From a virus (lineage: Duplodnaviria > Heunggongvirae > Uroviricota > Caudoviricetes): a DNA stretch of 64,000 nt. The stretch is from IMG/VR virus record IMGVR_UViG_2822641076_000001, positions 57,830 to 121,829 of that record; one strand, written 5' to 3'. Shown in pieces: positions 1,757 through 63,923 of this stretch; position 1 is the first letter of the stretch, and each line of letters begins with the position of its first letter. A program made the translations under genes and the position numbers. Under the pieces are notes generated by a model. That model did not search any database. It saw nothing but the letters and a program-made list of their open reading frames with translations, and was not told where the DNA came from.

Positions 1757-2968
1757 ATGGTGAAAATGTTATTTAAGGTTTCAAACGACAATGGTAATAG
1801 TGAGCAAGCATTAAAAGTAAATGGTGAGTTATTCACTCAACCAAATATCTATTCTATCGACCGTCCAAAAACAGTAGTTGAAGGAGACCCTTCATTATTC
1901 ATTCCTGCTTTAATGGACAACTTATACGTAACAATCACATCAAGTGCAATTGACCGCAATGGAGATTACTTCATTGGGAAACGTGCTTACAACTCAGATT
2001 ACGCACATTCTTTAACAATCACGAAGAGTGAAAAACATACATCAGATTTACCTATCATCAATACACTGGGCTTCCTAGCAGGCTTAGCAGTTAAGCAACG
2101 ATATGAAGAGAAGCAAGCACTTCCTAAGAGTATTGAACTTAACGTAGACATGGTAACAGCTCTACCTATTAAAGAATACGACGCAACTACGGCAAAAGCC
2201 TTTGAAGAGCGTTTTATGAATAATACACACGAAGTAATGGTTCACGTTGGTACAACATTCGTAAAAGTATCAATCACTTTCGAATTTGTTTATGCATTAC
2301 AAGAGGGTGCATGTGCAAACTACGCACTTATTCTTGATAACAAAGGTGGATGGAGAAACGATGATATTTTCGAAGAGTTAAAATGGGAATATCAATTAGA
2401 AAGCTTCACAGGTGAAGATGTGTTCAATATGAAAATGACTTGTGGAACTGATATCGGAGAGGGAACAACTGACGTTGGAATCCTAAAAGGATATAAACAA
2501 ATTGATGATTTAAGTGGTGGAGATGATTTAGGAGTTGGCTATGCAATCACTAAAGCTCTTCCAGTATTCAAGAAGGCAATGAGATTCCCTGCTTTAACAC
2601 GACATGAATACATGGAAATCGTAAAAGATTCAGATGATGCATTCCATGTAGAAGCAGTTGCTACACTGAAAGACAATTCATCAGACCAAGCAACGCTAAT
2701 TCATAAATTTGTTGAGCAATTAGTTGTTCATGGAGCTAGAAAACAACCTCGATTAATCTCTGTATTCGGTGGTGGTTCTATCACGCTGAAAGACAAGCTA
2801 TATAGCCCACTTAAAGCAGTTGCAGATGATTGCCGTGGTAAAATCTTATGGATTCCTGAGAAGTATGCTACAACAATCAACGTAGAAGGTATGGATGTAT
2901 TCTTAAATGTATTACTTCCACAACTTAAAGAACAACACATGGCTAAGAAAGAGAAGCAGAAGGCGTAA
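1757..2968 (+). CDS. actin-like ATPase of the ParM/Alp family (403 aa)
   Basis: Phosphate-1 motif SNDNGNSEQALK (DxGxxxxK), phosphate-2 motif GTDIGEGTTDVGI (DxGxGTTD) and adenosine motif VFGGGS. Size and motif order match the actin/ParM fold. Confidence 0.7.
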   Translation: MVKMLFKVSNDNGNSEQALKVNGELFTQPNIYSIDRPKTVVEGDPSLFIPALMDNLYVTITSSAIDRNGDYFIGKRAYNSDYAHSLTITKSEKHTSDLPIINTLGFLAGLAVKQRYEEKQALPKSIELNVDMVTALPIKEYDATTAKAFEERFMNNTHEVMVHVGTTFVKVSITFEFVYALQEGACANYALILDNKGGWRNDDIFEELKWEYQLESFTGEDVFNMKMTCGTDIGEGTTDVGILKGYKQIDDLSGGDDLGVGYAITKALPVFKKAMRFPALTRHEYMEIVKDSDDAFHVEAVATLKDNSSDQATLIHKFVEQLVVHGARKQPRLISVFGGGSITLKDKLYSPLKAVADDCRGKILWIPEKYATTINVEGMDVFLNVLLPQLKEQHMAKKEKQKA

Positions 2969-3010: not shown

Positions 3011-3586
3011 ATGAGTGCAACTAAAAAGGATAAACAAGTCGGTTCAACTATCATCTATAAGTTCGGAGTAGACGACCAAAAATTCGTTGATTGGTACAAT
3101 AACCAAGATAACTTCTCAGATTCATTCCGATTTGTTTTAGATTATTTCATGCAAAAGTTCGGGGATATAGACGTTAAAAAACTTAAACTTATGATAGAGA
3201 TGGGAATGGTCGATTTGGACAATCCTACACCTGTGCAAATACCAACTCCTGTCGCAAAAACACAAGTAACACCAGTACAAACACAATCTGAACCTGCTCA
3301 AGAGGTTGTAGAAGAAATAGCCTCAACAATTGAAGCAAAGACTGTGGAAGTTACAGAACCACCTCAAGAGCCTGTACAAGAGCCTGTACAAGAGGTTGCA
3401 GAGGAAGTTACAGAAGTAGAAGAAGAGAAGGTTAGCAGTTTAGATGTGCCAAAAGTTATTAAAGAGAAGCGTCAAGATGCTCAACCTAAACGAATAATTG
3501 TAGAAGAAAAACCAGTTGAAGTGAAGAAAGAAGCACCAGTAAGTAAGCCTGCTGTAATGCCTTCACTTGGTGATTTGAATAGATAA
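3011..3586 (+). CDS. acidic repeat protein, candidate DNA-binding adaptor of the actin-like system (191 aa)
   Basis: Immediately downstream of the actin-like gene, with a GGAGGG SD. About 70 aa of N-terminal globular sequence, then PVQ/EPVQE acidic repeats. The adaptor role is inference from alp7A/alp7R-type operon organisation. Confidence 0.35.
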   Translation: MSATKKDKQVGSTIIYKFGVDDQKFVDWYNNQDNFSDSFRFVLDYFMQKFGDIDVKKLKLMIEMGMVDLDNPTPVQIPTPVAKTQVTPVQTQSEPAQEVVEEIASTIEAKTVEVTEPPQEPVQEPVQEVAEEVTEVEEEKVSSLDVPKVIKEKRQDAQPKRIIVEEKPVEVKKEAPVSKPAVMPSLGDLNR

Positions 3587-3588
3587 AG

Positions 3589-3618
3589 GGGAGATTATTA
3601 TAATCTCTCTTTTTTTAT
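3589..3618 (+). terminator. rho-independent terminator (gggagatta...taatctct, then 7 T)
   Basis: 8-bp stem followed by a run of seven T immediately after the stop codon. Confidence 0.7.
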
Positions 3619-3628
3619 CCATAATCCA

Positions 3629-3657
3629 TTGACAGTGGATTATGGGATTGCTATACT
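3629..3657 (+). promoter_or_regulatory. sigma-A-type promoter TTGACA-17-TATACT (second copy of the early promoter family)
   Basis: ccattgacagtggattat...tatact is nearly identical to the copy at 1045-1073. Confidence 0.6.
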
Positions 3658-3732
3658 ATGAAAGTGCTAGAGATACGATTTGACAGGTAAAATCAAATGG
3701 TTACAAATTTCATTATGATTCTACAAATCTTC

Positions 3733-3757
3733 TGTTGCACAAATGTAATAAATAATG
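3733..3757 (+). promoter_or_regulatory. degenerate motif copy (acaaatgtaataaataatgtaaa)
   Basis: Matches the 21-bp motif at about 17 of 21 positions. Lies upstream of a weak TTGATT-18-TTATAA promoter. Confidence 0.3.
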
Positions 3758-3826
3758 TAAACTTGATTCAAGGCTTATTTTTTAATTTATAATGTGAACG
3801 ATATGCACATTAGAGGTGGTGAGAAC

Positions 3827-4084
3827 ATGACACATGTAGCGAACAGCATCATGCAAATGAAGGAATTGAACGCTAATGAAAAGCTGATTCTATTAGCTTT
3901 ATGTGTAGAAGGTAATGGTACTAAAGTATCAGTGGCACAAGACATCATAGCTGAAAGGTGTTCATTGACTCGTCGCAGTGTTATTAAATTCATCCAATCA
4001 TTAGAGGACAAGGGGTTCTTAAAGGTTTCACGCTCTGAATATAAGCGTGAGGGAAACATATATGAGCTTCACGTAGCACTATGA
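3827..4084 (+). CDS. winged-helix DNA-binding protein (85 aa)
   Basis: GAGGTGGTGA SD, then ATG at 3827 (internal to track ORF 3794..4084). The pattern LILLALC...VSVAQDIIAERCSLTRRSVIKFIQSLEDKGFLK is typical of MarR/DnaD-like wHTH domains. Confidence 0.5.
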   Translation: MTHVANSIMQMKELNANEKLILLALCVEGNGTKVSVAQDIIAERCSLTRRSVIKFIQSLEDKGFLKVSRSEYKREGNIYELHVAL

Positions 4085-4331
4085 TTGATGTGAGGAGCAA
4101 AAAAGACCATGAAAAAACCCATTCTCAAAGTTGAAATGGCGACCAACCAAAACTTTATGAATGGGTATTGGAGAGAGTTGTTTCTACGAAGCATCCCAAA
4201 AATGGAGCTTCACTCAAATGAGTAGATACAACACTCGTTAGCATTAGATTTGTATGTTTATAATATCATAAACAATGGGATAAGTAAATATGAGTGAAGC
4301 TCCTAGACAGCACATTTAGGAGGAAACACAG

Positions 4332-5339
4332 ATGGAAAATAACAAAGATTTATATGCAGGATATAAAAACGAACGATATCTCCACTACAGAGAGGTTCAT
4401 ACAGGACAATTCACAACTCAAAATACTAGAAATGGCTCAAGACGTGTACCAATTAGAGAGCAACGTATTGTAGAGTTCGAAGAGATTAAAGCATTGAATC
4501 TTAACTCAATTGGTGAATGTGTTCCTACATTAGATGCAGAAGACTTCACTATGATTCAAAACTATCTGTTAGACTTTTGGGGAGCTGTATTAGGTGCAGA
4601 TTGCATTCAAGTGTATATCCATCTAAGACGTCATGCTTACGGCAAAAAAGACTTCTGCTTCCCTGACATAGACACTATTGCATTGAAGATGAAGAAGAGT
4701 AAGAACTTTGTAAAAGGATGTCTAAAGACTCTAGAAGAGCATAACTTCATTGTCATCTTTAACAGACGTGATACAAAGGATAACAATCGCTCTGTGAGTC
4801 CTCTATTCAAGATTAGAAGGTTTGTTCCTTTATTAACCAATGAACTTTATGAAGAATTGCCTGCTAAACTAAAAAAAGACCATGATACATATATGGAAGA
4901 TTATAAGGATATTGACATTGCGACTAATGAGCTAAAAAACAGTAAAGTAATCGAAGGGTTAATTGAAAACGCTGAGTTATTTAGAAGCAAATCTCAGATT
5001 CGTGAAGCCAAAGAAAAGATTGCAGAAGAAAATAAAGCAACATACATAAGAGAAAAAATTGCTCCTGAGTACATCGAAGCAGGAGAGCAGATTCTCACAT
5101 CTCTTCAAAGCAGAATTTCTAAACCATCATTCGATGTTTGGTTTAAGGATGCTGTACTTGCATTAGATTCAGAGAAAAAATCAGTCTACGTGTTATGCGC
5201 CCATGACTTTGCTAAAACACACGTTCAAGATAAGTTTAAGACAATTATCGCTGAAGAAGTTGGAAAGCAAATCGGATTCAACGTAGAAGATACAACATAC
5301 ATATTCAAAACACACGATGAATATATCGTAGAAATTTAA
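4332..5339 (+). CDS. putative replication initiator or replisome organiser (wHTH, DnaD-like N-terminal region; 335 aa)
   Basis: TAGGAGG SD. The central segment YIHLRRHAYGKKDFCFPDIDTIALKMKKSKNFVKGCLKTLEEHNFIVIF resembles the wHTH of DnaD/phage replisome-organiser N-domains. It lies directly upstream of the iteron and DnaA-box array. Confidence 0.4.
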   Translation: MENNKDLYAGYKNERYLHYREVHTGQFTTQNTRNGSRRVPIREQRIVEFEEIKALNLNSIGECVPTLDAEDFTMIQNYLLDFWGAVLGADCIQVYIHLRRHAYGKKDFCFPDIDTIALKMKKSKNFVKGCLKTLEEHNFIVIFNRRDTKDNNRSVSPLFKIRRFVPLLTNELYEELPAKLKKDHDTYMEDYKDIDIATNELKNSKVIEGLIENAELFRSKSQIREAKEKIAEENKATYIREKIAPEYIEAGEQILTSLQSRISKPSFDVWFKDAVLALDSEKKSVYVLCAHDFAKTHVQDKFKTIIAEEVGKQIGFNVEDTTYIFKTHDEYIVEI

Positions 5340-5367
5340 GCAAGGGGATTTTCCTCTTGCTTTTTTA
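5340..5367 (+). terminator. rho-independent terminator (gcaagggg/tcctcttgc, then 6 T)
   Basis: 8-bp stem with one G-U pair, loop attttt and a T-tract, right after the stop at 5339. Confidence 0.65.
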
Positions 5368-5394
5368 TTTTTTCAGAAAAATAATTCTTCCGCA

Positions 5395-5650
5395 TATCAC
5401 AGCATGATACACTGCCTATCACCACATGATACACGAAACGATTTCCGCCTATCACCGTGTGATACACTGCCTATCACAGTATGATAGGCGACGCATATCA
5501 CCACATGATAGGCGACTTATCCACAGATTTTTTAAAATTATCCACGTTTTTCGCCTATCAGGAGATGATACACGAAATTTCCGCCTATCACAGCATGATA
5601 GTACCCACCTATCACCACATGATACACGACCGCCTATCACACGGTGATAG
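5395..5650. repeat. iteron array: nine copies of the 16-bp palindrome TATCAC-N4-(G/A)TGATA
   Basis: Copies at 5395, 5417, 5450, 5472, 5496, 5555, 5586, 5610 and 5635, mostly preceded by gCC. Spacing between copies is irregular (22-59 bp). The repeats generate the spurious His/Arg-rich ORFs 5426..5702. Confidence 0.8.
5517..5546 (+). promoter_or_regulatory. two direct DnaA boxes (TTATCCACA at 5517-5525 and TTATCCACG at 5538-5546) flanking attttttaaaa
   Basis: The first is an exact match to the bacterial DnaA-box 9-mer and the second matches 8 of 9. They sit in the gap between iteron copies 5 and 6. Confidence 0.55.
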
Positions 5651-5794
5651 TATAATAAGACAATATTCTTTTAAAAAAACAAATCTTTTAAAAAGACCTT
5701 AATAATTAATTAATATATAGGCTTCGCCTGCATTTAAAAATCATCTTCAAATCATCCATTCAAAACCAATACATTGAATATACAATTACTCAGA

Positions 5795-5824
5795 TTGACC
5801 ATAGACTTTATTGATTGTTATAAT
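5795..5824 (+). promoter_or_regulatory. sigma-A-type promoter TTGACC-18-TATAAT
   Basis: Good -35 and -10 boxes 40 bp upstream of the 5866 start. Confidence 0.5.
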
Positions 5825-5865
5825 GTATTTAACAAATATTACATTACAGCAGGAGAATTAAATTA

Positions 5866-6201
5866 ATGAAGAGATACTTACACTTTATATTTATAGCAAT
5901 CGGAGTTATTTCATGCCTAATAATGATGAATGTTGGAAATGCCAATTTAAACGTAGCAGATGAGATGAAAGAATCTTATTATGAGTTAGAGTTCTATAAC
6001 GAAGTATATAAAGGAATAGCAAGGTCATATAGCTTATATGGATATACAATGATATTCTCAGGATTGCTTGTAGGAGCATTATTCTTGGCTCTAGGACTTA
6101 TTCTAAAGAAATTAAATGAAATTATAGCCTTTAAAAAAATGGACGCTCAAATAGCCTCTCAGACACCTCAAACAGAAACAGCATCTAACTCTCAAAAATA
6201 G
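5866..6201 (+). CDS. membrane protein (111 aa, 2 TM)
   Basis: AGGAG SD. Two hydrophobic helices and a polar C-terminal tail. Confidence 0.55.
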   Translation: MKRYLHFIFIAIGVISCLIMMNVGNANLNVADEMKESYYELEFYNEVYKGIARSYSLYGYTMIFSGLLVGALFLALGLILKKLNEIIAFKKMDAQIASQTPQTETASNSQK

Positions 6202-6243
6202 GTTAATATTTACTAATATATTTCATATGTAAAGGCAATTATT

Positions 6244-6273
6244 AAGACAGTATTACACTGTCTTATTTTTTTG
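6244..6273 (+). terminator. rho-independent terminator (aagacagt/actgtctt, then 7 T)
   Basis: Perfect 8-bp stem, 5-nt loop and seven T. Confidence 0.75.
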
Positions 6274-6410
6274 TTACTTTAAATTTTTATTACTTGAATG
6301 CGAAGGTCTCATGTGATATATATATCTAAGTCGGTAATATAAAAAATAATTAAAATCAAACATATAGTGTAAATAATAATAAATTAACATCAAAAACCGA
6401 CGATAATGCA

Positions 6411-6440
6411 TTGACAGTGTACATATTATAAATGTATACT
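6411..6440 (+). promoter_or_regulatory. sigma-A-type promoter TTGACA-18-TATACT (third copy of the cattgacagtg family)
   Basis: gcattgacagtgtacat...tatact. A motif variant (agtgtaaataataataaa) lies 25 bp upstream at 6364-6385. Confidence 0.55.
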
Positions 6441-6588
6441 ATTTATAGACGTAAAAACATAGGATGTTAAAGCAACACACACAATCTATATCGCTAAATT
6501 AACATCTATAATATATCTTGAATACACATTCAGTGTATAAATCTACTGTTAATATCTTGACAAATGGAAAAAATAAGGAAACTTGGTA

Positions 6589-6617
6589 TTGGCAATGGAT
6601 TTTAGATATGGTATAAT
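6589..6617 (+). promoter_or_regulatory. sigma-A promoter TTGGCA-17-TGgTATAAT with extended -10
   Basis: 5 of 6 match in the -35 box, 17-bp spacer, TGn extension and a perfect TATAAT. Confidence 0.65.
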
Positions 6618-6625
6618 TTAACTGT

Positions 6626-6637
6626 TGACTAGAGTCA
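6626..6637. promoter_or_regulatory. palindromic operator-like site TGACTAGAGTCA at the predicted transcription start
   Basis: Perfect 5-2-5 inverted repeat 9 bp downstream of the -10 box. Followed by a CA-rich tract (acacacacatacatacat). Confidence 0.35.
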
Positions 6638-6766
6638 GCGAACATACACACACACATACATACATAGACTACGAAGATAGTCAGCTTAGACCAACTCAAA
6701 CAGTTGAGTCACAAGCAAGATAAGGAACATAAAAGTTACAAAGCTATAAAGGAGAAGTGGTACGAA

Positions 6767-7771
6767 ATGGATGAGCTAAAGAATGGTGAAAATGTAAAAG
6801 ACTTATTTTTAACTAATTATAATAACGATACAACTAAATCATACTACAATAGAATCTTCACTAAAGCCGAAATAATGGAAGAAACTTTAAATAAAGATTT
6901 ATATGATTTTACACTAGAAGAAATTGAAGAGCTTTTAATTCAATTACGTGGAAGCGCACAAGCAACAGAAGTTTACGGTCGTGTTATTTCAGCGTATATG
7001 AAGTGGGCAGTAGAAAATAACTACAAACAAACTAAAAATCCTCTATTAGATGTTAGCGCTAAATGGTTTGAAAATATCAGTGAAAATGTAAAGAACTTAT
7101 ATATAACTAAAAAACAATTATTAAAAATCGAATCAGATTGTTATAACTATCAAGACTCAGCAATAATTAGGTTATTATTTGAAGGAATTTGTGGAGAAAA
7201 AGCTATTGAAATTAGAGAACTAAAAAAGTCAGACGTAGAACAGGCTTTAGAGTTTATGCAAGAAAAGGGTCTTAATAGTGATATAGAAGATACAAAAGTA
7301 CCTTTAAATATTGGCGGAGCTTTCACAGAAGTTGATGCTCGTACTATACTCATGTTAGAACAAGCTATGCAAGAGAAGAGATATTGGAAGAAAAACGGAG
7401 ATATGGAACAAAGAGAGAATATCCGTGCTGTTACTGAATTAGTTGATAATGAATATGTATTCCGTCCTTCTATAACAAGAACAGGAAGTTATCATCAAGC
7501 TATTAAAGAATCTGTTATTTATAGACGTGTTAATTTAATTGGTGAAGTTCTAGGATATCCTCAATTAAAAACTAAAAGTATAATAAAAAGTGGTCAATTA
7601 TATATGGCTAAGAAAATTATGGAAGAAAAAGGCGAGTACTACCTAAGCACAGAAGATTATAAAAATATAGCGATTAGATTTGATATTAATAATTTCTATC
7701 CAATGAAAAAATATTGTAATGTTAAAAACATAAAAGAATTATATGGTGACTTTTTAGGACAAGACAAGTAA
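6767..7771 (+). CDS. hypothetical protein (334 aa; the track frame starts at 6704 with TTG)
   Basis: First ATG with an AAGGAG SD (long 12-nt spacing) is at 6767. The TTG at 6704 has no SD. No confident domain call. Confidence 0.45.
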   Translation: MDELKNGENVKDLFLTNYNNDTTKSYYNRIFTKAEIMEETLNKDLYDFTLEEIEELLIQLRGSAQATEVYGRVISAYMKWAVENNYKQTKNPLLDVSAKWFENISENVKNLYITKKQLLKIESDCYNYQDSAIIRLLFEGICGEKAIEIRELKKSDVEQALEFMQEKGLNSDIEDTKVPLNIGGAFTEVDARTILMLEQAMQEKRYWKKNGDMEQRENIRAVTELVDNEYVFRPSITRTGSYHQAIKESVIYRRVNLIGEVLGYPQLKTKSIIKSGQLYMAKKIMEEKGEYYLSTEDYKNIAIRFDINNFYPMKKYCNVKNIKELYGDFLGQDK

Positions 7772-7786
7772 GGAGCGATTCGAATA

Positions 7787-8059
7787 ATGGGTTATAAAGT
7801 TGAACATAAACTCGAAGCAAGGATGAATAAAGATAAATTCAAAATGTATTTAGAAAGAAAAAATATGAATGCAAAGCAATTGTGGGAGAAAATTGTTGAT
7901 GAGTATGGCATTCATATCAAATACAGGGGATTCATTGCTCTAATTAATAAACAAAACCTGTGGAAGTTAACCTATGCATATGTAATCTGCGAAGCCTTAG
8001 AGATAGATATTAAAGATATCTTCGAATTAAAGCCGACAGCGGAGGAAGGTGAAGAATGA
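7787..8059 (+). CDS. putative HTH transcriptional regulator (XRE-like; 90 aa)
   Basis: Segment KNMNAKQLWEKIVDEYGIHIKYRGFIALIN resembles a Cro/C1-type HTH. Confidence 0.35.
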   Translation: MGYKVEHKLEARMNKDKFKMYLERKNMNAKQLWEKIVDEYGIHIKYRGFIALINKQNLWKLTYAYVICEALEIDIKDIFELKPTAEEGEE

Positions 8060-8460: not shown

Positions 8461-8850
8461 ATGCAGGATTTGAAAGAATTTTCGCTCATCTTAGGACTAA
8501 CTCACACAGAGGAGAAAGATTTTTCAGTCTTGTTTGATGACGAAGACGATATAAAATATTTCACCAGTGAAGTATTGGATATCGAAAAACAGAAATGGGA
8601 ACATCTCTTCGACATGCGAATGTATAAACTACGCAACGCAAGCATTTCTTTCGAGGATTTTGAAGTCCTCTATGGTGAAGACCCTCACATCTCTCTAGTA
8701 AAATTATTCCGATTTGACTTGAATGCAGATGATTTCGCTTTGTTCCAAAGTATTGTAAAGAAGAATAACTTATCTCCAAAGGATATCTTCTTATTACATA
8801 AGAAAGACGTTCATGCGAGAGCAATGAAATTGGCAAAAATGTTGCCGTAA
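8461..8850 (+). CDS. hypothetical protein (129 aa)
   Basis: ORF with a weak GGAAGG SD. Acidic protein. Confidence 0.45.
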   Translation: MQDLKEFSLILGLTHTEEKDFSVLFDDEDDIKYFTSEVLDIEKQKWEHLFDMRMYKLRNASISFEDFEVLYGEDPHISLVKLFRFDLNADDFALFQSIVKKNNLSPKDIFLLHKKDVHARAMKLAKMLP

Positions 8851-8972: not shown

Positions 8973-9003
8973 CCTCTAATATAAATTAGAGGTTTTTGTT
9001 TTC
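8973..9003 (+). terminator. rho-independent terminator (cctctaat/attagagg, then tttttgtttt)
   Basis: 8-bp stem, 4-nt loop and a T-run. Separates the early block from the first canonical motif copy. Confidence 0.7.
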
Positions 9004-12815: not shown

Positions 12816-13550
12816 ATGACAGTGCAAATAGATGAACTACAAGTTATAGAAGAACAAGATTTAACATTACCCGAAAATGGATATAAATTAGTAGCTGAAA
12901 CGATACATAAATATTTTACTTACTATCCTTATTACGAGAAGACACATGGATACACATTCGATGATTTAATGCAATTTGGAATCATTGGGTGGATGAAATC
13001 ATTAGATGCTCATGACGAATCAAAAGGTAAACTTTCAACAATAGCTGTTAGATATATTCGAACTGAAATCTATAATGCAGTGCGAAGTACATATAAAGGT
13101 GTTCGAGTGAGTTACGAGGTTACACGGATTGCGAAATATATGCGTAAGCATCGGGGGAAGAAAACCCTGCAAGAAGTTCAGAAGAAATTTGATGCGTCGG
13201 ATGAAGTTATGAAAAGAGCTTTGTCATTTATGGATATGACAGTGATGAGCCTTGAAATAAAAGTGGGCGAGAGCAATAGAGGAGAGAGTAGAAAGTTAAT
13301 TGACATGATTAGTGATGAGAACGCTCATCATGATATGGAATTAGCAGGTCTCAAAACAGGACTCTCCAAGCGATTAGCTGTCGTATCTGAAACTCAAAGA
13401 ACTTGCATCTTACTTCGGTTACAAGGGTACACCCCAACGGAGATTGGGAAGATGTTGGGAAAGAGTACTGCAACTGTATCAATGCAAATTCATCATGGTA
13501 CAACAAAAATTAATAAAGTGTTCAATCACTCGATTGAAAATGTCGCATAA
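12816..13550 (+). CDS. sigma-70 family sigma factor (244 aa)
   Basis: Region-2-like segment FGIIGWMKSLDAHDESKGKLSTIAVRYIRTEIYNAVRS, and a region-4 HTH in ETQRTCILLRLQGYTPTEIGKMLGKSTATVSMQIHHGTTKI. Confidence 0.75.
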   Translation: MTVQIDELQVIEEQDLTLPENGYKLVAETIHKYFTYYPYYEKTHGYTFDDLMQFGIIGWMKSLDAHDESKGKLSTIAVRYIRTEIYNAVRSTYKGVRVSYEVTRIAKYMRKHRGKKTLQEVQKKFDASDEVMKRALSFMDMTVMSLEIKVGESNRGESRKLIDMISDENAHHDMELAGLKTGLSKRLAVVSETQRTCILLRLQGYTPTEIGKMLGKSTATVSMQIHHGTTKINKVFNHSIENVA

Positions 13551-17789: not shown

Positions 17790-19334
17790 TTGACGAAAAA
17801 GAGTACCACAGAAGAAGTCATAAAAAAGTTGGCTAAAGAAGCCGAAATTTCCGAAGCTCTGTTGACGGGTTTGTTTTGGCAAAACCCCGAAGAGTATTAC
17901 AATTTATACAGCAAAGAAAAACTGAATCATTCCACATTCAGAAATCCACACTGGGGATTCTTTTTTGAGTTAGGAAGAACAATGTTCGATGCGGATATCC
18001 GTGTATTTGATGATATCGCAACTCAAAAAACATTGAATGATTTAAGTAAAAAGCACGTAAAACTCTACGATAGCTATGGTGGATTCGATACGATGAAACA
18101 GGTCATGGTAGAGGTAAAACAGCGTGCAGAGAACTTTGAAGCCTATTATGAGGAAGTTCAAAAGTACAACACAGTCAAAGAATTATACGACCTATTTGGT
18201 GAGAAAGTCGTTACTAAAGATGGGAACTACGACTACAAATTACTAGACAGTGAGACTATTTGGAATTACTGGGTAGACAAAGTTAGTAACGTACAAACCA
18301 CACAAGGTGAGAAGTTCGATGAATGTAGTTTATTAGAGGGAATGGATGAAGCAATTGATATTTGGGATAAGAATGTCGATGCAGGAATGCCTTTCTATCG
18401 TAGTCCACAATTAACAAAGATATTCAGTGGATTTGCACGAGGAACTACTTACATATTAGCTAACTATTCGGGTGGTGGTAAAACATCTTTCACTATCAGC
18501 AAAGTTATTATGTCTCATATTGAACAGAAAGAGAAACTACTTATCATTGCGAATGAGCAGGATGAAATGGAATGGAAGAAGATGCTACTCATTACGGCGA
18601 TGGGACAGAGTGGTAATATAATTGACCGTCAAAGGTTAAATGAGGGTGAATTTACAGCAGAAGAAAAGCAGAAACTTAAAAATGCTTCTGCATGGTTGAA
18701 GCAATTCACAGAGGGTGACGATAAGCTTATTACTCTTGTATTCTTAGAGAACTACACAACAAAAAATGTTGAACGTGTAATGCGTAGACATGCTCGAAGA
18801 GGGACGGGAAGTGTCATTGTCGATACGGCTAAGCCACCCGATGATGATATGTATTCTTCACGTTGGGAAAGTTTCTACGAATCTATCAAGAAGATGTATC
18901 AGCTTTCTCGTAAAAATGCAGGAGGATTAAATCTGAGATGTTGGATTAACGTACAGCTTGGAGATAACACGATTGGTCGCAGATACCTAGATGAAACGTG
19001 TCTTGGTGAATCTAAGAAAATTAAGAACGAAGCAGGTCAACTTTTATTGGCTCGTTGGGCTTATCAATCTGAGTACAGAGAAGGTAAGAATGAATTGCTG
19101 TGCTACCATTATGTAAAAGATGAAAATAATCCTTTCGCTAAAAATGGATGGGTAAAAGAAGAGTTCACCTTAGACCCTAAGAGGAAATATCAGATTCTAT
19201 TTGTTCCTAAGAACCGACGAGGGAAAGCAAATAACACAGGCTTGAATATGTTGGTATTTGAAGTCAATATGGCAACAAATACATGGATTGAAAGAGGGTT
19301 CACAATGGTAGAAGATGATAGAAACAGTAAGTAG
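17790..19334 (+). CDS. DnaB-family replicative DNA helicase (514 aa, TTG start)
   Basis: RecA-like core with Walker A YSGGGKTSF and Walker B LLIIANEQD. The N-terminal helical domain and 500-aa size fit a phage DnaB or T7 gp4-like helicase. Confidence 0.55.
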   Translation: MTKKSTTEEVIKKLAKEAEISEALLTGLFWQNPEEYYNLYSKEKLNHSTFRNPHWGFFFELGRTMFDADIRVFDDIATQKTLNDLSKKHVKLYDSYGGFDTMKQVMVEVKQRAENFEAYYEEVQKYNTVKELYDLFGEKVVTKDGNYDYKLLDSETIWNYWVDKVSNVQTTQGEKFDECSLLEGMDEAIDIWDKNVDAGMPFYRSPQLTKIFSGFARGTTYILANYSGGGKTSFTISKVIMSHIEQKEKLLIIANEQDEMEWKKMLLITAMGQSGNIIDRQRLNEGEFTAEEKQKLKNASAWLKQFTEGDDKLITLVFLENYTTKNVERVMRRHARRGTGSVIVDTAKPPDDDMYSSRWESFYESIKKMYQLSRKNAGGLNLRCWINVQLGDNTIGRRYLDETCLGESKKIKNEAGQLLLARWAYQSEYREGKNELLCYHYVKDENNPFAKNGWVKEEFTLDPKRKYQILFVPKNRRGKANNTGLNMLVFEVNMATNTWIERGFTMVEDDRNSK

Positions 19335-30230: not shown

Positions 30231-31307
30231 ATGGAAAAACAAATTATAGAATCAGCAAAACAAAACATTATAAAAATAGTAGACTCTTTAGAAGTTTCAA
30301 ATATAGACCAAGTTTACAGTGATGTTGTGAAATACTTAGACTTTGCAAAGGCTTATAGCCAACTACCTCATATCATCAATGGGTTAAATGAAGTGAGTGA
30401 AGAAGCGAATGAGCCTAATCAATCAAATGTCGTTAATTTAAGTGGAGATACAATTCAGCTACATACGGAGAACAAAATTGAGGGTTACGAGTTTAAGAGA
30501 AACATCAAAGGTGGCTATTTAGATGGAACGGATATATATGTTCCCGAAAAGTTCATCAGAGAACTTGGACTACAGCATGGAGACATTGTTAAAGCCGATA
30601 AGATTGGTGAAAAGCGATATAAATATACTGTGTTAGATGATTGTGGTTGTGATAGTTTATCCGATGTAATTTCGATTAAGATGGCTGTCGTAGAATACGA
30701 CCCTTCAAGTAATCGCTATACAGCTAGTAAGGATTGGATGGATAATCCTATTATGATTAACGGTCATAAAGCAGAGATTATTATCTCAGACAATGACTTT
30801 AGAAACTTTAGCATCATGACAGGGGATATTATTGATATCAGCGTAGATAAAAATGACCTTGATTTCAGTCGTGTTGTTTGGAAACATGCAACAACGGATG
30901 AATACAATAGACAGTATACATCAAGTATTAAAAGAGAACCTAAGAAGCCTATCATAGAGAAGAAGAAGCATGAGCAATTCTTCGCAGGTAAAAAGATTGT
31001 TATGGTTGGATTTGATGTAGAGAAAGCTAGTTTCAGAGATGCAGTTGAAAGACATGGTGGACAATTTGAATGTCTTCACGGAATGGAAGATGAATCAAGA
31101 TTTGAGGCAACTATGAAGGATGCAGATGCAGTTGTGCTAATGCTGAGCTTCGTTAAACATAGAGCTACTATCTTAGCAAATCAACTATGTAAAGATAATG
31201 GTATTCCATGTGATTCTTTACACACCAAGGGTAAAAGTGGATTTGTAAGAATGGCAAAAGAACTAATAGATAAGAAAGCAAAAGAGGTACATGTTACCTT
31301 AAAATAA
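30231..31307 (+). CDS. hypothetical protein (358 aa)
   Basis: Long ORF. The C-terminal region (KKIVMVGFDVEKASFRDAVERHGG...) is possibly Rossmann-like, but no confident call. Confidence 0.5.
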   Translation: MEKQIIESAKQNIIKIVDSLEVSNIDQVYSDVVKYLDFAKAYSQLPHIINGLNEVSEEANEPNQSNVVNLSGDTIQLHTENKIEGYEFKRNIKGGYLDGTDIYVPEKFIRELGLQHGDIVKADKIGEKRYKYTVLDDCGCDSLSDVISIKMAVVEYDPSSNRYTASKDWMDNPIMINGHKAEIIISDNDFRNFSIMTGDIIDISVDKNDLDFSRVVWKHATTDEYNRQYTSSIKREPKKPIIEKKKHEQFFAGKKIVMVGFDVEKASFRDAVERHGGQFECLHGMEDESRFEATMKDADAVVLMLSFVKHRATILANQLCKDNGIPCDSLHTKGKSGFVRMAKELIDKKAKEVHVTLK

Positions 31308-40006: not shown

Positions 40007-41197
40007 GTGCAGATTTTAATGTCAGTATTAGGTCTTATTGGTCTAATAGGATTAGCATTCTTGCTATCTGAAAATAAGAAGAAAATTAAGTGGCGAACAA
40101 TTGGAACGGCTTTAGCTATGCAATTCCTATTAGCCTACCTGCTAGTAACAAGTGCAGGTCAACAAGCAATGAAATGGTTATCGGATGGCTATACAAAAAT
40201 CTCAAGCTATGCAACAGATGGAATCATGTTTGTATTTGGCGGATTCTTTAATGAGCATACAACATTTGTATTTGCAATCAATGTATTGATGGTAATCGTA
40301 TTCTTTGGAGCGTTATTCGCTGTGTTATTCTATCTGAATGTCATTCAGTTCTTTGTTAAATATGTGGGCGGTGCATTATCTAAACTACTTGGTACTACAC
40401 GAGTAGAAACATTTAGTGCAGTTATGAATATCTTTGCCTCACAAAACGAAGTTCCGACATTCATTAAACCATATCTGAAACATCTGACGAAAGCAGAACT
40501 GTTCGCAGTAATGGTTGCAGGAACAGGCTCTATGGCAGGTTCAATCTTAATTGGATACAGCTTAATGGGTATCCCGTTAGAATGGTTGCTTGTAGCATGT
40601 TTCATGGTTACAGGTTCTAGTTTATTAGTGGCAAAACTAATTGTTCCCGAAACAGAGGAGAGCCAAACGAACGGCAAGATTGAGCTTGACCGTAAGCAAG
40701 GTTCAGCTAATATTTTTGAAGCAATTTCAAATGGTGCAATGAGCGGTATGCAAATTGCTTGTGCTACAGCTACAATGCTAATTGCTTTCGTAGCATTAAT
40801 TGCATTAGTAAATGGTATCTTAGGAAACTTTGGCGTATCACTTGAGCAGTTGCTTGGATACTTATTCTATCCACTTGCATTCCTAATGAATGTAAGCCAT
40901 GACCAAGTAATGACAGCAAGTCAATTATTAGGTCAGAAGTTCGCAACGAATGAGTTTATTGCTTATTCTGCAATGGCAAAAGAGATGTCACAGATGGATA
41001 CTCGTACAATTGCTATGTTAACTATTGGTATCGGTGGCTTCGCTAACTTCTCATCTATTGGTATTTTACTGGGAAGCATTGGTGTTCTTGTTCCTGAGAA
41101 ACGAGGTATTGTTGCTAAGTACGGACTTCGTGCGATTGTAGCAGGACTTTTAGCAAATTTAATCAGTGCAACTATCGTTGGTATTTGGTTGCTGTAA
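40007..41197 (+). CDS. nupC: concentrative nucleoside transporter, NupC family (396 aa, GTG start)
   Basis: At least nine predicted TM helices. CNT signature GQKFATNEFIAYSAMA (NEF[IV]AY). AGGAGG SD. Confidence 0.75.
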   Translation: MQILMSVLGLIGLIGLAFLLSENKKKIKWRTIGTALAMQFLLAYLLVTSAGQQAMKWLSDGYTKISSYATDGIMFVFGGFFNEHTTFVFAINVLMVIVFFGALFAVLFYLNVIQFFVKYVGGALSKLLGTTRVETFSAVMNIFASQNEVPTFIKPYLKHLTKAELFAVMVAGTGSMAGSILIGYSLMGIPLEWLLVACFMVTGSSLLVAKLIVPETEESQTNGKIELDRKQGSANIFEAISNGAMSGMQIACATATMLIAFVALIALVNGILGNFGVSLEQLLGYLFYPLAFLMNVSHDQVMTASQLLGQKFATNEFIAYSAMAKEMSQMDTRTIAMLTIGIGGFANFSSIGILLGSIGVLVPEKRGIVAKYGLRAIVAGLLANLISATIVGIWLL

Positions 41198-62174: not shown

Positions 62175-63923
62175 ATGACAGACTTTATTCATTCAACTGA
62201 AATGGAAAACTTTCTTCCACCAACTTTACTGTGCGATTTCTACAAACTATCTCATCGCCCACAGTATCCGAAAGGTACAGAGGTAATCTATTCAACTATG
62301 ACACCACGTTCAAACAAACATATGCCTACGATTGATAAGGTAGTAGTATTTGAGATTCAATCATTCATCAAGGAGTTCTTAATTGGTTACTTTAACAAAT
62401 ACTTCTTTGCACGTAAGAAAGAAGTTGTCTTAGCAGAGTACGCACGAGTTATCAAATTCTGCTTAGGTGAAGAGAATCCTGACACAACTCATATTGCTGA
62501 GCTTCATGATTTAGGATATTTACCAGTACGAATCAAAGCTTTAAAAGAAGGTACGCTAGCACCAATGAAAGTTCCAGTGATGACTATCGAAAATACGATG
62601 CCAAAGTTCTTTTGGATTACTAATTACTTAGAAACATTACTTAGCACTGAGATTTGGCAAGGGATGACTTCTGCTTCAATTGCGTTGCAGTACCGTAAGA
62701 TTTTAAATGAGTACGCTATGAAGACAACTGGAAGCACTGACGGTGTTGTATTCCAAGGACACGATTTCTCAATGCGTGGAATGAGTTCTCTGCAATCAGC
62801 ACAGAAAAGTGGAGCAGGTCACCTATTATCATTCGTAGGAACGGATACTGTCCCTGCAATCTTATACTTAGAGCAGTTCTACAATGCAAACATCGAGAAA
62901 GAGCTTGTAGGAACGAGTATTCCTGCTACAGAGCATTCGGTAATGTGTGCGAATGGTCAAAATGAGTATGAAGTATTCAAGCGTATGATTACAGAGGTTT
63001 ACCCAAAAGGCTTTGTATCTATTGTTTCTGACACATGGGACTTTTGGAACATTGTCGGTGAGATTATTCCACGACTGAAAGAAGTAATTGAAAACCGTGA
63101 TGGTAAAGTTGTTATCCGTCCTGACAGTGGTATTCCTGAGGATATTCTTTGTGGCACTCATATCCCTGACCTTACAGGATTGAAATATGTAGATAACTTA
63201 GAAGATGCTAAAGAGTACTTCTATGAATATCTAATGGAAGAATTACGTGAAGATACTCCGCATGGTGAACATGGAGATACTGAAACGTCAGGGCAATTTA
63301 AGTTTGAAGGCAAATACTATGAATTAGACATCGAAGTTGAGTATGACCGTCATGACAAGCGATTCTACTACATTTGTGACGACAGAGTAAAACGTTTTGA
63401 AGAGTTCACTCCAAGTGTTGCAGATTTAGGATTAATTGAGGCACTTTGGAACATTTTCGGTGGAACTATCACAGAGCAAGGATACAAAGTATTAGCACCT
63501 TGTATCGGAGCAATTTATGGAGATGCAATCACATTAGAGCGTTGTAAAACAATTTGTCATCGTCTTGCAGAAAAAGGTTTCGCATCTACTAACGTAGTGT
63601 TCGGTATTGGTTCATACACATACCAGTTCAACACACGAGATACGTTCGGATTTGCTATGAAAGCTACATATGCAGTGATTAATGGCGAAGAAAAATTAAT
63701 CTACAAAGACCCGAAAACAGATGATGGTACGAAAAAATCTCAAAAAGGTCGAGTAGTAGTAATTGAAGAAGATGGCGAACTGAAATTAATTGATGGATTA
63801 AATAAAGAAGAGCAAGTAAGTTACTTTGGCAAAGACCAATTAGAGCAAGTATTCTTCAATGGTCAACTGCACCGTGACGAAAGCCTACAAGAGATTCGTG
63901 AACGAGTTGCAATGAACTTTTAA
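62175..63923 (+). CDS. nadV: nicotinamide phosphoribosyltransferase (Nampt/NadV family) (582 aa)
   Basis: Nampt signature GHDFSMRGMSS (DFGxRG type). The size and N-terminal FLPPTLLCDFYKLSH fit Nampt. Confidence 0.7.
   Translation: MTDFIHSTEMENFLPPTLLCDFYKLSHRPQYPKGTEVIYSTMTPRSNKHMPTIDKVVVFEIQSFIKEFLIGYFNKYFFARKKEVVLAEYARVIKFCLGEENPDTTHIAELHDLGYLPVRIKALKEGTLAPMKVPVMTIENTMPKFFWITNYLETLLSTEIWQGMTSASIALQYRKILNEYAMKTTGSTDGVVFQGHDFSMRGMSSLQSAQKSGAGHLLSFVGTDTVPAILYLEQFYNANIEKELVGTSIPATEHSVMCANGQNEYEVFKRMITEVYPKGFVSIVSDTWDFWNIVGEIIPRLKEVIENRDGKVVIRPDSGIPEDILCGTHIPDLTGLKYVDNLEDAKEYFYEYLMEELREDTPHGEHGDTETSGQFKFEGKYYELDIEVEYDRHDKRFYYICDDRVKRFEEFTPSVADLGLIEALWNIFGGTITEQGYKVLAPCIGAIYGDAITLERCKTICHRLAEKGFASTNVVFGIGSYTYQFNTRDTFGFAMKATYAVINGEEKLIYKDPKTDDGTKKSQKGRVVVIEEDGELKLIDGLNKEEQVSYFGKDQLEQVFFNGQLHRDESLQEIRERVAMNF

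Follow-up and report, generated by a model that had tools for sequence, protein, structure and literature searches.

Positions 4332 to 5720 of the 64-kb stretch of phage DNA analysed here (hereafter the window) very probably constitute a theta replicon of the type known from the Bacillus subtilis plasmid pBS72, carried by an SPbeta-like phage of approximately 154 kb from the Bacillus cereus group that probably persists as a plasmid prophage. The assignment is made by sequence comparison. An earlier interpretation of the window, drawn from its letters without database searches (the sequence-only reading), had proposed a theta-type origin beside an initiator gene, and this proposal is upheld by the homology of the initiator to pBS72 RepA and by about a dozen elements in which the whole layout recurs, pBS72 and a vector derived from it among them.

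It is clear that the array of nine palindromes downstream of the initiator gene is real and far beyond chance. The motif TATCA-N5-TGATA has nine exact matches at 5395-5649 and none elsewhere in the window, where approximately 0.22 matches would be expected, and zero shuffled sequences reached nine; allowing one mismatch adds three scattered sites elsewhere, which is about the background level. All nine copies counted in the sequence-only reading were thus recovered, as was their division into two blocks, while its description of the unit as a 16-bp TATCAC-N4-GTGATA element with 5-N6-5 geometry had to be revised. The unit is a 15-bp palindrome of 5-N5-5 geometry, and although eight of the nine iterons start with TATCAC, the full TATCAC-N3-GTGATA is present in only two of them (5450 and 5635). 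The triplet GCC directly precedes six of the nine, in agreement with the earlier remark that most copies follow it. Block I (5395-5510) holds five palindromes starting at 5395, 5417, 5450, 5472 and 5496, spaced by 22, 33, 22 and 24 bp, and block II (5556-5649) holds four, starting at 5556, 5586, 5610 and 5635 and spaced by 30, 24 and 25 bp; neither block is assigned a strand. From the last iteron of block I to the first of block II the start-to-start distance is 60 bp. No iteron copy was found in the initiator promoter, even with one mismatch allowed, where it would have been a sign of autoregulation.

A near-identity DNA search of positions 3600-6200 against phage and plasmid collections gave no match, and relatives were therefore reached through the initiator protein. 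Bacillaceae isolates have homologues with 30-97% identity, the majority of them on stand-alone contigs of 115-154 kb, and more distant ones are found in the phages PJN02, FADO, PK-3 and 2S-4; a protein search of a plasmid collection found homologues in 41 plasmid records, among them pBS72 and a pHT01-type vector. Among 1.84 billion proteins the family comprises 77 clusters at 50% identity (E values up to 1e-30), and it is thus a small family that is common to conjugative plasmids and phages.

Comparison with two of these relatives shows that the palindrome arms are under selection, whereas the centres and the spacers vary. Against a 97%-identical relative (locus L012) none of the 90 arm positions has changed, compared with 8 of 45 centre positions and 9 of the 134 other positions in the array; against a 60%-identical relative (L003) the arms are again unchanged (0/90), with 19/45 changes in the centres and 57/134 at the other positions. 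The order of parts behind the initiator gene is the same in about a dozen loci, pBS72 included: a terminator, a palindrome block of three to six copies, a DnaA box, a second block of three to five palindromes, and an AT-rich box, (T/C)ATAAT-ACAATCTTTTAA-AAGACCTTTAA, which closes the layout. The spacing is conserved across loci as well, with 21-22, 33-35, 22 and 23-24 bp in the first block, a gap of 50-74 bp, and 29-30 and 23-24 bp in the second. In eight loci the palindrome was not found outside its own array within the 10-64 kb available, and no second array lies within 5 kb on either side. Five loci (L005, L007, L014, L015 and L018) keep the array with different flanking genes, a UvrD-type helicase gene lying downstream and no actin-like, small winged helix-turn-helix (wHTH) or MrpR gene standing beside it. 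As far as these loci tell, the array travels with the initiator and not with the neighbouring genes.

Three of the relatives deserve separate mention. The 140-kb B. cereus G9842 element pG9842_140 (L025) is deposited as a plasmid and carries genes for the alpha subunit of DNA polymerase III (Pol III alpha) and an amidase; its initiator is 30% identical to that of the window, and TATCA-N5-TGATA palindromes lie at 8525-8650, approximately 540 bp downstream of the gene. On the chromosome of Brevibacillus laterosporus (L016/L017) a family member with TTATCCACA downstream has phage tail genes on one side and host flagellin genes on the other, and this copy is integrated or a remnant, unlike those on the stand-alone contigs. 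In phage PJN02 (L001) the array is followed by five GGTTCGAATCC T-arm motifs with a spacing of 75, 82, 81 and 155 bp, so that the region 7520-8000 looks like a tRNA gene cluster; no equivalent cluster adjoins the array in the window.

The initiator gene (4332-5339, plus strand) encodes a protein of 335 residues, the assignment of which was based on Pfam, PHROG and BLASTP matches and on an AlphaFold2 model. The protein has an N-terminal beta-hairpin region, a wHTH domain (approximately residues 94-165), a helical linker and a C-terminal module resembling domain I of DnaA (approximately residues 252-320). In Pfam it matches HTH_36 and, at the C-terminus, DnaA_N, and it matches PHROG 26369, annotated as replication initiation protein, with an E value of 5e-44. 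BLASTP against pBS72 RepA gave 33% identity (E value 2e-49) over residues 17-311, covering both domains, and both Pfam families were found in RepA too. A profile of 22 homologues matches domain I of B. subtilis DnaA (4TPS_B; E value 3e-11), and the model, with a mean predicted local distance difference test score (pLDDT) of 80, has its best match among solved folds in the same domain (4tps_D/B; template modelling score 0.76-0.78, root-mean-square deviation 2.3 Å), while the middle domain resembles winged helices of the MarR/TFE type. By sequence profile and predicted fold, the C-terminal domain is a DnaA domain I. In B. subtilis DnaA both DnaD binding and the delivery of DnaD to oriC require the residues T26, W27 and F49 (PMC10201431). 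Their counterparts in the initiator are V269, W270 and F293, and among 22 family members the positions are occupied by T in 15, W in 19 and F in 17.

The link between initiator and array is further suggested by the recognition helix. In all seven TATCA loci the helix starts with [ST][KRP]NxVK[GK], whereas all four non-TATCA loci (B. spizizenii, pBS72/B. rugosus, Brevibacillus and phage PJN02) differ at this place; their palindromes include TACCG-N5-CGGTA in B. spizizenii and ATTAAAATTTAAT in pBS72/B. rugosus. The iteron type thus appears to track the recognition helix, which fits the initiator as the binder of the array.

Directly before the ribosome-binding site of the initiator gene lies a leader hairpin (4204-4303) with 16-nt arms that are 94% complementary and a predicted RNA folding energy of -33.6 kcal/mol (z = -3.9). 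It is kept in the 97% relative, not clearly so in the 60% relative, and it may regulate initiator expression. At the other end the gene is closed, ahead of the array, by an intrinsic-terminator-like hairpin followed by a T run (5338-5372, with the hairpin at 5338-5362, plus strand), much as had been noted before; a hairpin occupies the equivalent place in relatives.

Between the two blocks lie two DnaA boxes on the plus strand, as the sequence-only reading had it, of which only one is conserved. The box at 5517-5525 is TTATCCACA, 6 bp past the last palindrome of block I, and it is the sole exact DnaA-box consensus in the window. The second box, TTATCCACG at 5538-5546, has one mismatch to the consensus. 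Of 13 loci, 10 have an exact box between their two blocks, and in all seven loci where the offset was measured it is exactly 6 bp from block I, even in the B. spizizenii locus L007 with its different iteron. The box at 5517 is invariant between the window, L012 and L003, and the same box is present in pBS72. The counterpart of the box at 5538 is TTATCCACA in L012, TTATTCACA in L003 and absent from more distant loci, so that it does not appear to be conserved beyond the closest relative. A degenerate half-iteron was considered as the origin of the DnaA box and rejected, since the exact 9-mer is kept where the iterons differ (L007, pBS72, Brevibacillus and PJN02). A box in the sequence is no proof of function, and it is the comparative evidence that would carry the case. 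Conservation of the box and of its 6-bp offset makes recruitment of host DnaA, which had been suggested earlier, plausible. Since the initiator has a DnaA domain I of its own and DnaA is reportedly dispensable for pBS72, such recruitment would probably not be the essential step, and a requirement of this origin for DnaA is doubtful.

Behind the array the GC content falls from 0.47 to 0.21-0.26 at 5650-5850, in keeping with the AT-rich stretch previously placed at 5660-5760. Abutting the last iteron is an AT-rich box, GTATAAT..ACAAT(A)TTCTTTTAAAAAAACAAATCTTTTAAAAAGACCTTAA (5650-5720, no strand, GC content 0.21), and in the alignment the pattern (T/C)ATAAT-N-ACAATCTTTTAA-AAGACCTTTAA is conserved in divergent loci as well as in pBS72. 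The least stable 40-mer within 5300-5900 starts at 5680 and belongs to the top 0.1% of the window. We regard 5650-5720 as a candidate site for DNA unwinding and helicase entry. The GC skew was uninformative at the scale of this region, and an Rfam scan of 3500-6800 returned matches at chance level only, so that no known RNA element is indicated there.

The closest known system is pBS72, a theta replicon that is reportedly the basis of the vectors pMTLBS72, pHT01 and pNDH33 (work of Titok and co-workers from 2003 and 2006). The later of these studies is said to have found that pBS72 needs RepA and an iteron-containing origin together with host DnaB, DnaC, DnaD, DnaG, DnaI, DnaE and PolC, that DnaA, PriA and Pol I are dispensable, and that RepA has a domain homologous to the helicase-binding domain of DnaA. 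In pBS72 the repA homologue is the first gene, and nucleotides 1161-1535 hold ATTAAAATTTAAT-type palindromes, TTATCCACA at 1387 and then AAAACAATCTTTTAAGAAAAGC; a pHT01-type vector has retained nucleotides 1-2200 intact, and with them repA and the array behind it. Derivatives of pBS72 are low-copy theta-replicating vectors (PMC5615212), and such theta-replicating derivatives still work when two upstream open reading frames (ORFs) are removed (PMC6331482). The window shares with this replicon an initiator in which HTH_36 is followed by a C-terminal DnaA-domain-I-like module, and an iteron array of two palindrome blocks directly downstream of the repA-type gene, behind a terminator. It also shares the central TTATCCACA and, after the last iteron, the conserved AACAATCTTTTAA..AAG(A/C)C box, which are traits of the type as delimited in this analysis and not by a published definition. 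The two differ in the iterons (TATCA-N5-TGATA here and the ATTAAAATTTAAT type there), in the host (here the B. cereus group), in the actin-like partition gene that adjoins the replicon here, and in the carrier, which is a conjugative plasmid in the case of pBS72 and here a phage of approximately 154 kb with its own helicase, primase and Pol III alpha.

Other well-known origins resemble the module in part. As in the lambda O/ori-lambda system, there are several inverted-repeat iterons that suit winged-helix dimers, a one-sided AT-rich tract and, by prediction here, a separate C-terminal part for recruitment to the helicase pathway. In lambda the origin is embedded in the O gene, with four iterons and without a DnaA box, and O, which lacks a DnaA domain I, recruits P-DnaB. 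In the window the array lies past the stop codon and the terminator, and the initiator had no match to Pfam Phage_rep_O at E values up to 0.01, only weak matches to O-like PHROGs being found. Gram-negative iteron plasmids (P1 oriR, F, pSC101, RK2 and pPS10) likewise combine iterons, one or more DnaA boxes and an AT-rich element beside a rep gene, and they are low-copy elements with partition systems. In those plasmids Rep monomers with two winged-helix domains bind iterons that are asymmetric direct repeats, whereas all repeats here are palindromic and the initiator combines one modelled winged helix with a DnaA domain I; Pfam gave no Rep_3-type match for it, which sets it apart from the classical Rep_3/RepA WH1-WH2 initiators. 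With domain I of B. subtilis DnaA (4TPS) the last 70 or so residues agree in sequence and predicted fold, and the equivalents of Trp27 and Phe49 are kept while that of Thr26 is Val. Unlike in DnaA, the domain stands at the C-terminus of a winged-helix protein that lacks the AAA+ and DnaA-box-binding domains.

The homology to pBS72 RepA, the domain architecture, the shared layout, the selection on the arms and the match between iteron and helix are direct results of the comparison, and from them we infer a mechanism. Dimers of the initiator would use the winged helix to bind all nine 15-bp palindromes, and as neighbouring iterons are separated by two to three helical turns, the bound dimers would assemble into a higher-order complex. 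The conserved box at 6 bp from palindrome 5 would probably be occupied by one host DnaA molecule in an auxiliary or regulatory role. The initiator complex would open the conserved AT-rich box beside the last palindrome, and its copy of DnaA domain I, with the Trp and Phe of the DnaD contact, would recruit the helicase-loading pathway, for which host DnaD, DnaB and DnaI-DnaC, or the DnaB-like helicase and primase of the phage, are candidates.

The array could alternatively be a copy-number-control or incompatibility locus similar to incA of P1, titrating or handcuffing the initiator while the true start lies elsewhere. P1 has nine incA iterons downstream of repA, and here too nine initiator sites are found downstream of the rep gene and none upstream. 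We nevertheless consider this decidedly unlikely, since the array contains or adjoins a DnaA box and a conserved AT-rich box, none of the eight loci has a second array within 5 kb, and pBS72 vectors keep the array as the sole iteron cluster beside repA. Copy control and origin function could moreover share the same sites, so that this explanation competes only partly with a pBS72-type origin. In a strictly host-dependent origin, DnaA at both boxes would melt the DNA and recruit the helicase, with the phage protein assisting. Such an origin would be consistent with the consensus box at its fixed 6-bp offset and with the statement that a pBS72-derived replicon is "thought to" replicate in a DnaA-dependent manner (PMC5615212). 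It is unlikely all the same, as only one box is conserved, some relatives have none, DnaA is reportedly dispensable for pBS72, and the initiator supplies a DnaA domain I that includes the DnaD-contact residues; nor is there a box cluster of the kind needed for DnaA oligomerisation, two boxes standing in place of the several that form the cluster of a DnaA-dependent oriC-like origin.

Two further explanations assign the array to neighbouring genes, and both are disfavoured, since loci and vectors without those genes at the flanks still have the array behind the initiator. Partition centromeres often take the form of repeat arrays, and with an actin-like gene (1757-2968) and two small candidate adaptor genes, encoding an acidic protein (3011-3586) and a small wHTH protein (3827-4084), located 1.3-3.6 kb upstream, the array could be a parC-like centromere. 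The usual place of parC is upstream of the motor gene; in the window 2.4 kb separate the actin-like gene from the array, which is downstream, and a separate AT-rich repeat cluster occupies the usual place. The array is also kept without a flanking actin-like or small wHTH gene in the five loci named above and in the pHT01 vector, and the iteron type changes with the recognition helix of the initiator, all of which makes a centromere very improbable. It is just as improbable that the palindromes are operators for the MrpR-type protein (6704-7771) or the small wHTH protein, controlling the early genes from 5866-6201 onwards. This possibility draws on the presence of the MrpR homologue 1 kb downstream, on a sigma-A-like promoter at 5795-5824, and on the finding that MrpR of SPbeta binds a 15-bp repeated element (PMC10516654). 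The sites of SPbeta MrpR are spread over ten promoter regions (PMC10516654), whereas TATCA-N5-TGATA is restricted to one array in 64 kb, and judged by the distribution of sites the window lacks the SPBRE/MrpR pattern of a 15-bp element over many early promoters. The array furthermore lies at least 145 bp upstream of the nearest good promoter and persists in pBS72 and other loci that have no flanking MrpR gene.

A number of observations weigh against the assignment of a pBS72-type replicon and temper our confidence in it. Several other intergenic stretches of the window are equally AT-rich and unstable, so that AT-richness alone fails to single out 5650-5760. One-mismatch DnaA boxes are not enriched in the window (15 found against 21 expected), and the boxes are therefore insignificant on their own. 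Clear arrays without an exact DnaA box occur in L015 and L018, and pG9842_140 has no DnaA box within its array. The correspondence between recognition helix and iteron is confounded by phylogeny. Finally, the phage has its own helicase, primase and Pol III alpha, so that lytic replication might start elsewhere, with the module serving only for maintenance in the plasmid state.

Within the pBS72-type reading, it is possible, though less likely than not, that the initiator acts as a mimic of the recruiting end of DnaA. The copies of domain I arrayed on the nine palindromes would directly capture host DnaD, or else the phage helicase encoded at 17790-19334, and pairing between domain I of the initiator and domain I of the single DnaA molecule at the 6-bp offset would tie replication of the 154-kb phage-plasmid to host cell-cycle and sporulation controls of the DnaA and SirA type. 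If this is true, inhibitors of DnaA domain I such as SirA would also stop the prophage replicon during sporulation.

Our literature searches found no described replication origin for large SPbeta-like phages or phage-plasmids and nothing relevant on initiators that fuse HTH_36 and DnaA_N. The present analysis thus offers a concrete, testable origin and initiator for a group of large Bacillaceae SPbeta-like phages and phage-plasmids, and it places the replicon of common B. subtilis vectors (pBS72, pHT01) in a small family of plasmids and phages. The kind of origin is already known and exploited in vectors, and no new kind is revealed; what is added, as far as the literature searches show, are the invariant arms, the fixed 6-bp offset of the box, the conserved AT-rich box and the retained DnaD-contact residues. 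The comparison maps targets for mutation in the palindrome arms, the DnaA box at its 6-bp offset, the AT-rich box, W270 and F293, and such mutations could help settle how a DnaA-domain-I module in a foreign initiator loads the helicase in Firmicutes, and whether DnaA has any role.

The replicon appears to be part of a maintenance island. The actin-like (ParM/Alp-type) protein (1757-2968, plus strand) matches PHROG 691, annotated as partition protein, with an E value of 2e-19, and its matches to Pfam ALP_N and MreB-like_C are weak and below the cut-off; it is probably the partition motor of the same island. Directly upstream of its gene are AT-rich repeats of ATTATATAAT and variants with a period of approximately 10 bp (1629-1715, no strand), which are a candidate centromere or promoter of the actin-like system and distinct from the iterons. 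Positions 3011-3586, located between the genes for the actin-like and small wHTH proteins, encode a 191-residue protein with acidic proline-rich repeats (EPVQEPVQE...), for which no family match was found and which could be a partition adaptor.

The small winged-helix protein of 85 residues (3827-4084, plus strand; Pfam HTH_36) is encoded upstream of the initiator gene and had been put forward as a possible binder of the palindromes. BLASTP showed no significant similarity between the two proteins, and the idea of an initiator paralogue serving as a second iteron binder was rejected on this ground; a divergent 233-residue HTH_36 protein in a Priestia locus is not a clear paralogue either. The gene was called upstream of the initiator only in loci of the B. 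cereus lineage (L003/L004 and L019-L022) and not in L005, L007, L014, L015 or L018, so that it fails to flank the array in most relatives that keep the array. A role in iteron binding is accordingly unlikely, and the protein is probably a regulator or a partition adaptor.

Downstream of the replicon the MrpR-type protein (6704-7771, plus strand) has a tyrosine-recombinase fold and matches Pfam MrpR_N_CB (2e-19) and MrpR_C_cat (6e-16). MrpR is the master repressor of SPbeta (PMC10516654), and the gene marks the element as SPbeta-like and temperate; it belongs to the context and is not part of the origin. The window further encodes an AAA_24 protein, a DnaB-like helicase, a primase, a RecJ-like nuclease, a ribonucleotide reductase, a ligase, Pol III alpha and a sigma-like factor, a set of SPbeta-type early and replication functions, and relatives carry the Pfam families YorF, YomU and YonG. 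Evidence for a plasmid state comes from the PJN02 locus, which has a 100%-identical counterpart in a 165.6-kb plasmid record, from a Priestia element that is represented by two assembled contigs of near-equal length with different start points, and from the exact initiator protein of the window, which is found on a stand-alone contig of 153,905 bp. The impression of a virulent phage given by the sequence-only reading does not agree with the MrpR-type repressor, the actin-like partition gene and relatives that stand alone or are deposited as plasmids, and a temperate phage-plasmid is the better description.

Some features of the window outside the replicon were noted in passing. A motif of approximately 21 bp, ACAAGTGTAAAAAATAATGAA(T), has more than 20 copies on the plus strand between 8999 and 63962 (for example at 8999, 10116, 12778, 20418, 24145, 33329, 37986, 52913, 58546 and 63925); the copies that were checked lie just upstream of an ORF start, and the motif looks like a phage-specific middle or late promoter, perhaps used with the sigma-like protein encoded at 12816-13550. 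Upstream of the small wHTH gene, at 3619-3657, a near-consensus TTGACA-17-TATACT promoter is embedded in a 13-bp inverted repeat (CCATAATCCATTG/CAGTGGATTATGG). Cores resembling CATTGACAGTG are also present at 1040, 6406 and 59576, and such sites may represent early promoters that include an operator, perhaps one recognised by the MrpR-like repressor. Three auxiliary genes among 40007-41197, 62175-63923 and 30231-31307 are unusual, encoding a homologue of Na+-dependent nucleoside transporters, a protein similar to nicotinamide/nicotinate phosphoribosyltransferase, and a protein with a Rho RNA-binding domain and DUF2325.

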